From assembly GCF_011045215.1 (NCBI RefSeq), contig NZ_CP049201.1: a DNA stretch of 64,000 nucleotides; one strand, written 5' to 3'. The notes below the pieces were generated by a model. It saw only the letters and a list, made by a program, of their open reading frames with translations. It made no database searches and was not told the origin of the DNA. This stretch comes from Escherichia coli (GTDB taxonomy: Bacteria > Pseudomonadota > Gammaproteobacteria > Enterobacterales > Enterobacteriaceae). Below, piece after piece: positions 5,139-50,020 of this stretch. The translations under genes and the position numbers were made by a program. The stretch's first letter is position 1; each line of letters starts with the position of its first letter.

Positions 5139-5687
5139 TCACGTTACACAATACGCATCAATGGACGCTGAGTAGTTCGCGAGTTTTAAACTTCCAACGT
5201 CCGCTTTTCGCTCAAAGCGGACTAGAAGGTTAGCTTGTATCGGACTTTGCGTATTAAATGACTAGTGGTTGAGCCCCATTTCCACAGAAAAAATCAGAGA
5301 AACTATACCCAATAGTTGTATTGAATCACTGACGAGACAGCCTCATATTCATCAGGACTGGTGTACGTCCAATACAGGAGGTTGTGGTGCTGGTTCTCAA
5401 ATGTGCGCTGGCTATTACGGCTGTAATGGCGATTTATTGTCTTGCTATTGTTCTTATGGATCGCCTTTCTGACTGATTTCATATTGGCGAGGTAACGGTA
5501 GTTAAGTAGAATGGCTGCGGGTGCTTGAGGCTATCTGCCTCGGGCATGAACACCAACGGCAGATAGAGAAAAGCCCCAGTTAACATTACGCGTCCTGCAA
5601 GACGCTTAACATTAATCTGAGGCCAATTTCATGCTAGACACATGTAGGTTAGCCTCTTACGTGCCGAAAGGCAAGGAGAAGCAGGCT

Positions 5688-5843
5688 ATGAAGCAGCAAA
5701 AGGCGATGTTAATCGCCCTGATCGTCATCTGTTTAACCGTCATAGTGACGGCACTGGTAACGAGGAAAGACCTCTGCGAGGTACGAATCCGAACCGGCCA
5801 GACGGAGGTCGCTGTCTTCACAGCTTACGAACCTGAGGAGTAA
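5688..5843 (+). CDS. hokD: Hok/Gef-family type I toxin (HokD/RelF-like), 51 aa
   Basis: Translation MKQQKAMLIALIVICLTVIVTALVTRKDLCEVRIRTGQTEVAVFTAYEPEE matches recalled HokD; in-frame upstream extension from 5631 is mok-like; sok antisense expected ~5600..5700 on minus strand. Confidence 0.85.
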   Translation: MKQQKAMLIALIVICLTVIVTALVTRKDLCEVRIRTGQTEVAVFTAYEPEE

Positions 5844-5911
5844 GAGACCCGGCGAGGGATAAATCCCTCGCCACCTCTGATGTGGCAGGCATCCTCAACG
5901 CACCCGCACTT

Positions 5912-5939
5912 AACCCGCTTCGGCGGGTTTTTGTTTTTA
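5912..5939 (+). terminator. Rho-independent terminator of hok mRNA
   Basis: Hairpin acccgcttcggcgggt followed by tttttgttttt; preceded by a second hairpin 5851..5872. Confidence 0.6.
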
Positions 5940-6059
5940 TTTTCAACGCGTTTGAAGTTCTGGACGGTGCCGGAATAGAATCAAAAATACTTAAGTAGCG
6001 CGCAGGGATAAGAGGGATGGTCCCTTAAAGGGGAGAGCTAATTATCCGGAAGGATTCTG

Positions 6060-6311
6060 ATGATGAACATCGAAGAACTGCGTAAAATTTTTTGTGAAGA
6101 TGGCCTCTATGCTGTGTGCGTTGAAAATGGAAACATTGTTAGTCATTACCGCATTCTGTGTTTGCGAAAGAATGGGGCTGCGTTAATTAATTTTATGGAT
6201 GCTCGGGTCACGGACGGATTTATCTTGCGCGAAGGTGAGTTTGTCACTTCATTACAGGCACTGAAAGAGATCGGAATAAAAGCAGGCTTTTCAGCTTTTG
6301 CAGAAGAATAA
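6060..6311 (+). CDS. rem: Rem-like small prophage protein, 83 aa
   Basis: 83-aa ORF with GGAAGGA RBS upstream; position after hokD as rem in Qin; length matches recalled Rem. Confidence 0.55.
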   Translation: MMNIEELRKIFCEDGLYAVCVENGNIVSHYRILCLRKNGAALINFMDARVTDGFILREGEFVTSLQALKEIGIKAGFSAFAEE

Positions 6312-7709: not shown

Positions 7710-8069
7710 TTGTGGAGAAAGTTGATGCGTGATATGTATGAAGTTTTAGACCGCTGGGGAGCGTGGGCTGCAGCAGATAACAGTGGTGTGGACTGGCAGC
7801 CGATAGCAGCAGGCTTTAAGGGGCTTTTACCTCATGGTAAAAAAATACGCCTTCAGTGTGATGATGATGAAGGCATCATGATAGACGGCTGTGTTGCCCG
7901 CCTGTGTAAGTATAAACCAGACGAATATGAGCTGATCATTGCTCACTTCGTTATAGGTATTTCACTGCGTTCTATTGCGAAGAGACGCAGATGCTCAGAT
8001 GGAACAATCCGGAAGCAATTGCAGACTGCGTTAGGTTTCATTAATGGGGTTATGTACATGCTCAAGTAA
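7710..8069 (+). CDS. Phage antitermination protein Q-like, 119 aa
   Basis: Small basic protein with Cys cluster and C-terminal HTH-like segment (IAHFVIGISLRSIAKRRRCSDGTIRKQL), at the canonical Q position upstream of the lysis cassette. Confidence 0.6.
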   Translation: MWRKLMRDMYEVLDRWGAWAAADNSGVDWQPIAAGFKGLLPHGKKIRLQCDDDEGIMIDGCVARLCKYKPDEYELIIAHFVIGISLRSIAKRRRCSDGTIRKQLQTALGFINGVMYMLK

Positions 8070-9288
8070 TATTTGGCATTAATTTAAATAAAATACCGAT
8101 GATGCCTATGAATGTAGGCATCCATGCTAGTGATAATAAACTGTCAAGCACCTTATGACAAAAATCCTCATTGTCATTTAATTTTTTAATAGCCTCTTCT
8201 AAGCTCTCTTTAAGATCGCTGGTGTCATCCTTTATTCTATATCTTAATTGTCCAAAAAGTATTTCTTTAGAGTGTGAAATACGAGCAAGTTGTTTTTTTT
8301 GTGACACAATCATTGCAGATGTTATTATTGCTGTGATAATCAATCCAATTAAAGCAATAATCCAATCAGCTTTTGTTGTTAATTTGAAAATAGCAATTGA
8401 ACCAGCTAGTGAAATAGGTATTGCAAGAGCTTTGTTAGAAATTTCTGAAATTATTTTTGACAGTTTTTCTGAGTAATCGAGTTCAGCATCAACAACTTCT
8501 TTCCTTGCTTTATGAAAAGAAAATGCCGATATATAAGCAGCTAAGTTGTTCGTATAAAGTTCGCATATGAAATCCCACTTGTTAATTAACTCGACAAAGG
8601 AATTTCCATTTTTATTAACATACTCAATAACTGTGTTTCTGAAAGTGTTAATCTTTTCAATGTGATGGGCATCAGTAGTAGCTTCACTACTTACTAATGT
8701 TTTAACTAACTGAGTATTTACTGTTTTATCATTAAAAATTTCTTCTGTAATATTTGTTTCAATTACAGCAGAAGAAGATTTAGACTCTGAGTTTAAAATA
8801 AAGACTAAACGATAAAATGTACCTTTGCTATCTTTTTTTATATCATGGAAATGAGCAAGCATGGAAAGAGCATTGATTAGCTCACAAATGTCCTCAATTT
8901 TTTGGATATAAGAAGGTTTTGGTGTTTCTAATGAATAGAAATCATCCTCTATAATATAGAAATACTCTGGCATTATGCCTTTCTTGAGCGTGTTTATTTT
9001 TACAAACTCGTTTTTATTTTTATAAAAACGATTCGCACTTCCTTGTGAAATTTTAAACGAGTATGTAAGAAAATTTCCCTTTTCAGGAAAGTCTTCATAA
9101 TCATAAATTAAATGACCATCCACCTCTATTTCGTCAGCTGTACCAGCTTGAAAAGTAGGGTTCAAAATTCTTTTGAACAATGATTTTACGTCTGCATTAT
9201 AAGCTATACGCGCAGAAAACTTAGCCCCGTCAAAATGAGGATAGCTTGATAATCTATACAGATTAACTATTATACTAAAATCATTCAT
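8062..9288 (-). CDS. Membrane protein, 408 aa, three predicted TM helices in C-terminal third; candidate effector of two-gene cassette
   Basis: ATG overlaps upstream gene stop (ATGA at 9285..9288); hydrophobic helices (ALAIPISLAGSIAIFKL, WIIALIGLIITAIITSAMIV, LLSLAWMPTFIGIIGILFKLM); AT-rich codon usage. Confidence 0.7.
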   Translation of the reverse strand: MNDFSIIVNLYRLSSYPHFDGAKFSARIAYNADVKSLFKRILNPTFQAGTADEIEVDGHLIYDYEDFPEKGNFLTYSFKISQGSANRFYKNKNEFVKINTLKKGIMPEYFYIIEDDFYSLETPKPSYIQKIEDICELINALSMLAHFHDIKKDSKGTFYRLVFILNSESKSSSAVIETNITEEIFNDKTVNTQLVKTLVSSEATTDAHHIEKINTFRNTVIEYVNKNGNSFVELINKWDFICELYTNNLAAYISAFSFHKARKEVVDAELDYSEKLSKIISEISNKALAIPISLAGSIAIFKLTTKADWIIALIGLIITAIITSAMIVSQKKQLARISHSKEILFGQLRYRIKDDTSDLKESLEEAIKKLNDNEDFCHKVLDSLLSLAWMPTFIGIIGILFKLMPNIT

Positions 9289-36728: not shown

Positions 36729-37309
36729 TGGCATTCAGAATGAGTGAACAACCACGGACCATAAAAATTTATAATCTGCTGGCCGGAACTAATGAATTTA
36801 TTGGTGAAGGTGACGCATATATTCCACCTCATACAGGTCTGCCAGCAAACAGTACCGATATTGCACCGCCAGATATTCCGGCAGGCTTCGTGGCTGTTTT
36901 CAACAGTGATGAGGCATCGTGGCATCTTGTTGAAGACCATCGGGGTAAAACGGTTTATGACGTGGCTTCCGGCGACGCGTTATTTATTTCTGAACTCGGC
37001 TTATTACCGGAAAATGTCACCTGGTTATCCCCGGAAGGGGAGTTTCAGAAGTGGAACGGCACAGCCTGGGTGAAAGATGCAGAAGCAGAAAAACTGTTCC
37101 GGATCCGGGAGGCGGAAGAAACAAAAAACAACCTGATGCAGGTAGCCAGTGAGCATATTGCGCCACTTCAGGATGCTGTAGATCTGGAAATCGCAACGGA
37201 GGAAGAAAACTCGTTGCTGGAAGCCTGGAAGAAGTATCGGGTGTTGCTGAACCGTGTTGATACATCAACTGCACCTGATATTGAGTGGCCTGTAATACCA
37301 GAAGTTTAA
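36728..37309 (+). CDS. tfa: Tail fibre assembly protein (lambda Tfa-like)
   Basis: 193 aa; TAATG overlap with stf; followed by hairpin agcccgc...gcgggct at 37316..37345. Confidence 0.8.
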
Positions 37310-49705: not shown

Positions 49706-49744
49706 GCTCCGTTTAACATTCATTGAGAAAACTGATGCTACTGT

Positions 49745-49850
49745 GTCAACGATCCGTTATCAGTGCAGGAAAATGCCTGTTAGCGTAAAAGCAAAACACA
49801 AATCTATCCATGCAAGCATTCACCGCCGGTTTACTGGCGGTTTTTTTTTC
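49745..49850 (+). ncRNA. mgrR: Candidate MgrR-like sRNA ending in terminator 49821..49850
   Basis: Intergenic region downstream of dgcZ, divergent context with mgtS; strong hairpin caccgccgg-ttta-ctggcggt followed by nine T; recalled MgrR lies at this locus. Boundaries approximate. Confidence 0.35.
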
Positions 49851-49924
49851 GCCGTCATAAAAATCAGGCCCCTTGTACACAACTGTAACAAGGGGCCGGT
49901 TAGGTGAGGGATTATCTCCGTTCA

Positions 49925-50020
49925 TTAGTCATCCCATTTGTGGCTGAAATACGCGGCCAGAAAACCAGAAAATAAAATTATTCCCAGTACGGCCATAAAA
50001 ACATTCATATTACCCAGCAT
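49925..50020 (-). CDS. mgtS: Small membrane protein MgtS (YneM), 31 aa
   Basis: Reverse-strand translation MLGNMNVFMAVLGIILFSGFLAAYFSHKWDD; terminator hairpin ggccccttgt...acaaggggcc at 49866..49900 on minus strand. Confidence 0.65.
   Translation of the reverse strand: MLGNMNVFMAVLGIILFSGFLAAYFSHKWDD

Follow-up and report, generated by a model that had tools for sequence, protein, structure and literature searches.

A stretch of 64,000 nucleotides from Escherichia coli (contig NZ_CP049201.1 of assembly GCF_011045215.1; the whole stretch is called the window below) carries a small gene for a toxin of the Hok family, preceded by a long leader and followed by two hairpins, and opposite the leader a candidate gene for the antisense RNA Sok. 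Together, these very probably constitute a complete hok/sok cassette, which would follow the canonical hok/sok cycle and be carried, as a moron, by a Qin-like lambdoid prophage that looks complete, in its early-right (nin-like) region. The cassette is an already known and ordinary one, and it is instructive only in that it keeps the leader that hokD of K-12 (also termed relF) has lost.

The toxin gene, taken from the list of open reading frames (ORFs), encodes a protein of 51 residues, MKQQKAMLIALIVICLTVIVTALVTRKDLCEVRIRTGQTEVAVFTAYEPEE, which is 100% identical to HokD of K-12 and to WP_000813254.1. This protein matches the Pfam family PF01848 (HOK_GEF) with E=3e-23 (81.6 bits, the cutoff being 22) and PHROG 251, “MokW-like host killing”, at 2.8e-33, so that the original prediction of a Hok/Gef toxin was right, and its frame is unbroken in all 97 independently sampled copies. 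No second copy of hok was found in the window. The in-frame, mok-like upstream extension that had also been proposed is present: the mok ATG lies 57 nt 5′ of the hok ATG, has its own Shine–Dalgarno (SD) sequence (GAGG), and opens a frame of 70 codons that crosses the start of hok. The offset of 57 nt and the common stop are those of mokC and hokC as annotated in MG1655, and ribosomes starting at mok would possibly yield a Mok-Hok fusion of 70 residues. Two ORFs on the minus strand, 5657..5821 (54 aa) and 5818..5946 (42 aa), were rejected as antisense shadows of hok and of its terminator, with no family to support them.

The original prediction had the unit begin at 5631. The real start appears to lie some 147 nt further upstream, at a sigma-70-like promoter whose −10 hexamer is kept in nearly all relatives, and the functional unit would thus extend from about 5484 to 5939 and include the hok promoter and a leader of 169 nt; the upstream third of the hok/sok module had been missed. 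The position of this promoter is the reason for placing the 5′ end of the mRNA at about 5519, which is 7 nt past the −10 hexamer and coincides with the start of the match to the Rfam model RF01794 (“sok”). This match covers 5519..5693 with 115.3 bits (gathering score 59; E=6e-27) and is full-length (model positions 1–157 of 157) on the hok-sense strand. Despite its name, “sok antitoxin”, RF01794 in effect models the hok leader from the 5′ end of the mRNA to the hok AUG, while Sok itself is an RNA of some 60–75 nt on the strand opposite to the match. Since the match lies on the hok-sense strand, it is evidence for the leader/sok region and not for the orientation of Sok, and calls of strand resting on RF01794 would mislead.

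The predicted RNA of 418 nt has a folding energy of −172.2 kcal/mol as against −129 ± 6.2 kcal/mol for shuffled sequences (z = −6.94). Both in its minimum-energy fold and in a consensus structure derived from 64 distinct relatives, the translational activator element (tac) at the 5′ end pairs with the fold-back inhibitory element (fbi), which is located between the two 3′ hairpins, and the 11 pairs of this helix are retained in 62–64 of the 64 distinct sequences. In the same two folds, which would correspond to a closed form of the mRNA, the anti-SD box, ucb, pairs with the mok SD (5619-5623). An open form, in which tac pairs with ucb, is found in the centroid structure of an RNA lacking its last ~45 nt and in the consensus structure of the Rfam model, where the mok SD and dcb form the base of the Sok-target hairpin, with the mok AUG in its upper stem and loop. 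These two conformations match those described for the hok mRNA of plasmid R1 (PMC9841398), and the fold-back architecture that had been proposed for the mRNA is borne out by the pairing of its 5′ end with fbi.

The two 3′ hairpins are where they had been predicted, the first being recovered in the minimum-energy fold and in the consensus fold of the relatives, with a stem of 9 bp and one compensatory pair (5855/5868), and the second being recovered by the terminator scan as a T run preceded by a 7-bp stem with 5 GC pairs. By analogy with R1, from which the protective role of this stem-loop is taken (PMC9841398), the first hairpin is likely to be the protective end of a processed, truncated hok mRNA. 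Matches to isrK (27.4 bits, gathering score 50) and rsmX (23.7 bits, gathering score 56) over the 3′ untranslated region did not reach the threshold, and the two hairpins account for them. The idea that the ORF and its hairpins have arisen in prophage DNA by chance, in favor of which there is only the small size of the ORF, is refuted by the Pfam and Rfam matches, by the fold (z = −6.9), and by thousands of conserved copies; its probability is practically nil.

An antisense sok RNA had been expected on the minus strand at about 5600..5700. There is indeed a candidate gene on this strand, but it is shifted with respect to that interval, as regards both the RNA and its promoter (Table 1). The 5′ end of the RNA was placed by applying to the window the 9-nt overlap that exists between sokC and mokC in MG1655. 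So defined, the predicted Sok has a single-stranded 5′ tail of 10 nt, a long hairpin, and the end GGGGCUUUUCU (−30.3 kcal/mol, z = −4.84); compared with the Rfam consensus, the loop of its hairpin contains a 16-nt insertion. Its promoter has a −35 hexamer that is invariant and a −10 hexamer that is nearly invariant among 69 aligned sequences. At the level of sequence, a promoter, a free 5′ tail, and a terminator hairpin are all found opposite the mok start.

Experiments that bear on this promoter were made with hokW-sokW, a locus of Sakai prophage 5 (Sp5) and of Stx2 phages that was shown to be a toxin–antitoxin system of type I (Takada et al. 2021, PMC8621323). In the “pro-less” sokW construct, TAACCT was changed to GAGCCG (primers YO-421/422) and antitoxin activity was lost, while a fragment equivalent to 5538..5690 of the window restored this activity when sokW was supplied in trans; the northern probe used for sokW, YO-592, corresponds to 5610-5640 of the window (PMC8621323). 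The −35 and −10 hexamers of sok in the window are base-for-base those of the validated sokW promoter, and the earlier opinion that function could not be judged from the sequence was consequently too pessimistic.

Table 1. Features of the predicted hok/sok cassette in the window, in order of position.
Feature	Position	Strand	Basis
hok (mok-hok) promoter, TTGGCG, 17-nt spacer, TAGAAT	5484..5512	+	promoter scan, 9/12 matches
Full-length mok-hok mRNA, ~418 nt, both ends predicted	5519..5936	+	Rfam start, terminator, fold
tac (translational activator), mRNA 5′ end	5519..5529	+	pairing in folds
Predicted Sok antisense RNA, ~74 nt, both ends predicted	5566..5639	−	fold and sokC geometry
ucb/anti-SD box, AGCCCC	5572..5577	+	pairing in folds; invariant columns
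Sok-target hairpin, mok SD (5620-5623) paired to dcb (5652-5656)	5620..5656	+	Rfam structure line
Hypervariable patch at the top (upper stem and loop) of the target hairpin	5625..5645	.	entropy peak
70-codon mok frame, in phase with hok	5631..5843	+	ORF list
sok promoter, −35 TTGCCT (5674..5669), 17-nt spacer, −10 TAACCT (5651..5646)	5646..5674	−	read from sequence
hok SD, AGGAG, 9 nt 5′ of ATG	5674..5678	+	sequence; invariant among relatives
hok toxin gene (HokD, 51 aa)	5688..5843	+	Pfam, PHROG, K-12 identity
TadA editing motif, loop UUACGAA; A5827 in Tyr47 codon TAC (5826-5828)	5825..5831	+	sequence
3′ stem-loop	5851..5872	+	9-bp stem in minimum-energy and 64-relative consensus folds
fbi (fold-back inhibitory) element	5894..5905	+	pairs with tac in minimum-energy and consensus folds
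Intrinsic terminator of hok mRNA, stem 5912..5929 then T run	5912..5939	+	terminator scan

How might such a cassette work? Of the following scheme, the elements, how they are conserved, and both alternative pairings are shown in silico, and its other steps are inferred from R1 and from hokW-sokW of Sp5. A weak promoter would give rise to the 418-nt mok-hok mRNA, in which, according to the folds, tac pairs with fbi and ucb masks the mok SD, such that the closed mRNA would be neither translated nor bound by Sok. Slow trimming from the 3′ end would then take off the terminator and fbi, whereupon tac would pair with ucb, as it does in silico, and the SD and start of mok would be exposed in the target hairpin. 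At this stage, the short-lived Sok made from the minus strand would pair via its 5′ tail with the target hairpin, block the translation of mok, and trigger cleavage by RNase III. Were the synthesis of Sok to stop, which might result from loss of the element, induction of the prophage, or a shut-off of transcription, ribosomes would initiate at mok and continue across the start region of hok. Hok, and possibly also the 70-residue Mok-Hok fusion, would then insert in the inner membrane and depolarise the cell. The 3′ processing, the cleavage by RNase III, the toxicity, and the depolarisation have been shown for R1 (PMC9841398) and, in part, for hokW-sokW (PMC8621323). In a prophage, to judge by what is reported of hokW-sokW, the pay-off is likely to be retention and/or faster lysis upon induction.

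Several observations weigh against such an active role. The −35 hexamer of hok falls outside the conserved cassette, as defined by the alignment and the entropy profile. The −10 hexamer of sok agrees with only 3 of the 6 consensus positions, and a generic promoter scan did not report the sok promoter, which is attributable to this weak −10. Among the 64 relatives, not one compensatory pair was found in the tac/fbi helix, these sequences being too similar for covariation to give strong support, and the compensatory changes are confined to local hairpins. In general, the case for the copy in the window is built on sequence and in silico folds. Moreover, as summarised elsewhere, chromosomal hok loci reportedly did not bring about post-segregational killing and did not respond to rifampicin by activation (bioRxiv 10.1101/2025.08.07.668861). 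Finally, HokD has a tyrosine, Tyr47, rather than a hard-coded cysteine at the position where HokB needs its second cysteine for full toxicity, and in K-12 only ~6% of the hokD mRNA is edited there (PMC12214031).

These last two points are also among those in favor of a different explanation, namely that the cassette is a structurally intact but physiologically silent and selfish passenger, comparable to hokA, hokB, and hokC, which fail in tests of post-segregational killing. It is consistent with this explanation that related copies are sometimes disrupted by insertion sequences (ISs) or, in K-12, truncated, which shows that loss is tolerated. However, the regulatory elements are all intact and conserved, the third codon positions of hok are conserved (mean distance 0.049) and its ORF was intact in each of the copies sampled, HokW, which is 92% identical, is toxic and under the control of sokW (PMC8621323), and the cassette is carried by inducible phages. 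A silent passenger therefore seems unlikely.

The tyrosine codon itself lies in a motif of the type edited by TadA, the loop of which is closed by CAG/CUG. The TACG of this motif is kept in all relatives, hokW included, and six of the seven bases of the loop are presumably those of the anticodon loop of tRNA-Arg2. Editing from Tyr to Cys has been reported at this same position in the hokD mRNA of K-12 (PMC5630033), and, by analogy, editing by TadA in the window would recode Tyr47 to Cys.

The prophage in which the cassette lies looks complete. On the plus strand, the order of genes is dicC, ydaT, O, a ren-like gene, a NUDIX gene, a HAD gene, hok, rem, an ORF of 92 aa, ydfU (DUF968), and Q, all the genes from dicC to Q being on one strand with the cassette co-directional; Q is followed by genes for lysis, terminase, portal, capsid, and tail. 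No tRNA gene was found in the 64-kb window. Such an arrangement raises the possibility that hok is expressed mainly by read-through from the early-right genes between dicC and Q, just as hokD of K-12 is expressed from the relBE promoter, in which case Sok would be a mere damper. On induction, antiterminated transcription would meet the sok promoter head-on and silence it, and Hok would act as an accessory lysis factor. Consistent with this are the co-directionality of the cassette with the genes from dicC and O to Q, the hok ORF of K-12, which lies directly behind relBE and has neither a promoter nor a leader of its own, and the behavior of Sp5, where RecA-dependent induction leads to the disappearance of sokW RNA and the appearance of HokW, and where the phage yield halves without the locus.

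Against read-through as the main source of hok mRNA, the cassette has its own conserved −10 hexamer, its own terminator, and a precise 5′ end, which the pairing of tac with fbi requires. Moreover, it recurs as a discrete cassette, from ~5492–5500 to ~5932–5942, in varied flanks, including those in Stx phages, other temperate phages, and some plasmids, and in many of these unrelated flanks and in the plasmids such read-through is absent. On these grounds, we consider this explanation improbable, slightly more so than a silent passenger. It is nevertheless plausible that read-through combined with interference at the sok promoter complements the canonical hok/sok cycle, which it does not exclude.

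The relationship to K-12 deserves attention, since the original prediction, seeing a hokD-type locus, had this locus retained while its relBE-type neighbors were replaced. It is true that relBE is absent from the window and that a NUDIX and a HAD gene are found upstream, but the polarity is the reverse. Homology between the DNA of K-12 and the window begins only at 5674, the hok SD. Past this point, the two are identical or nearly so as far as the terminator and beyond it in rem, ydfU, and Q. In the cryptic prophage Qin of K-12, where hokD (relF) follows relB and relE, the same toxin is encoded at the same position of a Qin-type prophage, whereas everything 5′ of window position 5674 is replaced by relE and a 71-nt spacer. 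Missing from the K-12 locus, accordingly, are the promoter of hok, tac, ucb, the start of mok, the target of Sok, the sok promoter, and Sok itself, all of which the window has. In agreement with this, neither mokD nor sokD is annotated in the curated MG1655 record, which does annotate mokC and sokC, and the hokD of K-12 has been described as inactivated by rearrangement (PMC12214031).

Surveys of other genomes allow the direction of this change to be judged. The full leader was present in 75 of the 80 IMG/VR viral loci that encode the identical toxin, as compared with relE in 4 and a partial leader in 1, and, of 5426 complete E. coli genomes, 4286 contained one full leader or more and 1166 the relE-hokD junction; the K-12-type junction, with relE directly upstream of hok and neither leader nor mok nor sok, was not found in the window. 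The window therefore represents the common and complete state, and the relBE-hokD of K-12 the derived and truncated one, and it is this predominance of the full leader that makes the earlier wording K-12-centric. The slot upstream of the cassette is one for variable cargo: it is occupied by the NUDIX and HAD genes in the window, by a 449-aa gene in phage mEp460, by small ORFs in a Rac-like phage and in HannyBb, and by relBE in K-12. A cassette that bears the annotation hokD in thousands of E. coli genomes, that has its own PHROG family, and that has a 94%-identical and characterised sister matters little in itself. Its use is rather as a correction: what goes by the name of hokD is, in most E. 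coli and in temperate phages, a complete hok/sok module, while the relBE-hokD of K-12, from which the gene name comes, is a truncated derivative.

In two of the 75 viral loci with a full leader (L012 and L056), the sok promoter is separated from the hok SD by an inserted IS of 1.1 kb (392-1486 in L012), which encodes a transposase of 362 aa with an rve domain. The site of this insertion corresponds to the AGGAGA at 5674..5679 of the window, and AGGAGA is duplicated. The insertion and the start of the homology with K-12 are at the same base, 5674. This base could be a hot spot for recombination or insertion, or it could be the remnant of a rearrangement mediated by an IS. In the genome with the closest cassette (NZ_CP145707.1, 6811..10645), rem is split by elements of the IS3 family and a group II intron (ltrA), and there is an IS3 upstream of the HAD gene; the hok/sok cassette is intact.

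Of the relatives with names of their own, the nearest is in the temperate phage mEp460 (LR597641.1, “MokW protein”), which is 99.6% identical to the window over 5250..6060. The two have in common an upstream module of 233 bp, the same allele of the Sok target, and rem downstream; they differ farther upstream, where in mEp460 the gene of 449 aa, on the minus strand, takes the place of NUDIX and HAD. hokW-sokW is ~94% identical over the cassette at the nucleotide level, its toxin shares 47 of 51 residues with that of the window, its sok hexamers and hok SD region are identical, and its mok is again in frame with 70 codons. The differences are four substitutions at the C-terminus of the toxin (TAYEPEE versus VDYESEK), five differences in the patch formed by the 5′ tail of Sok and its target, a different 3′ end with no terminator in common, and a different position in the genome, hokW-sokW being near att in Stx2 phage I and the cassette of the window between the replication genes and Q. 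As for hok/sok of R1 (parB), it consists of the same parts (tac/fbi, ucb/dcb, mok, Sok, and 3′ processing), with the mok AUG at +116 and the hok AUG at +174 as against +113 and +170 in the window. In R1, the offset between mok and hok is 58 nt, with mok in the +1 frame, while it is 57 nt and in frame in the window; the R1 toxin is ~44% identical, the value being that for HokW; and the carrier is a plasmid rather than a prophage.

The differences between the Sok targets are part of a wider pattern. In an otherwise conserved leader, there is one peak of entropy, the patch at the top of the target hairpin, which is at the same time the 5′ tail of Sok and codons 2–5 of mok. Some 24 alleles of this patch were present in 196 copies, 18 of which have the allele of the window, CCAATTTCATGCTAGACACATGT, and the mean pairwise distance between patches was 0.26, about five times the 0.049 at the third codon positions of hok, the rest of the leader being at 0.03–0.07. 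All of the ~18 alleles examined nevertheless fold into an equivalent hairpin, with energies of −11.5 to −15.9 kcal/mol. In sequence terms, this pattern fits a diversification of antisense specificity.

A stronger version of this idea, which we put forward only tentatively and which may well be wrong, is that the patch of 20 nt is a determinant of specificity and is under diversifying selection, its roughly two dozen alleles being mutually orthogonal pairs of Sok and target. If so, the up to nine cassettes with the same toxin in one genome would each remain addicted to their own prophage without cross-protection, which would account for the coexistence, in a single cell, of many copies of the same type I toxin cassette and would have a parallel in Sib/Ibs. 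When co-resident copies were compared for avoidance of a shared Sok-target allele, 1 of 20 within-genome pairs shared one, versus 1.9 expected, a difference that is not significant (P = 0.40).

Insertions and deletions in the patch also alter mok, which exists in three forms: in frame with 70 aa, in the +1 frame with 68 aa, and as an ORF of 19 codons. The last of these (e.g., in the locus L019) has a TGA stop that overlaps the hok ATG as ATGA and was the commonest allele in the first sample (17 of 81 loci), while the 68-codon form occurs in L023 and L086 and is annotated in MN652886.1. All versions of mok among the relatives cross the hok SD, in agreement with the rule that only the translation of mok up to the hok start matters (PMC9841398).

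The 233-bp module shared with mEp460 (5259..5491) contains, immediately upstream of the hok promoter, an unannotated plus-strand ORF, 5387..5476, for a hydrophobic peptide of 29 aa, MLVLKCALAITAVMAIYCLAIVLMDRLSD, which has a GTG start and a GGAGG SD at 5377-5381. The module was present, with no annotated feature, in 1755 of the 5426 E. coli genomes and is also found without hok (H29). The ORF is open in ten distinct versions, with 6 of its 11 variable sites at third positions. It had no match in Pfam, NCBIfam, or PHROGs, and an exact look-up gave only the labels “hypothetical protein” or “membrane protein”. It could encode a small membrane protein or another toxin resembling those of type I systems. 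On the other strand of the module, the ORF 5303..5482, which is called in some phage annotations, was rejected as coding: several relatives have internal stops or have lost the start, and its variable codons comprise 1 synonymous as against 10 non-synonymous.

Elsewhere in the window, an ORF of 408 aa on the minus strand (8062..9288), directly downstream of Q, contains hydrophobic segments at its C-terminal end and gave no match in Pfam, and different genes occupy its site in the closest genome; it may be another moron. Full-length Rfam matches were also found on the plus strand to STnc560 (49717..49931, 277 bits) and IS009 (37071..37269, 228 bits).

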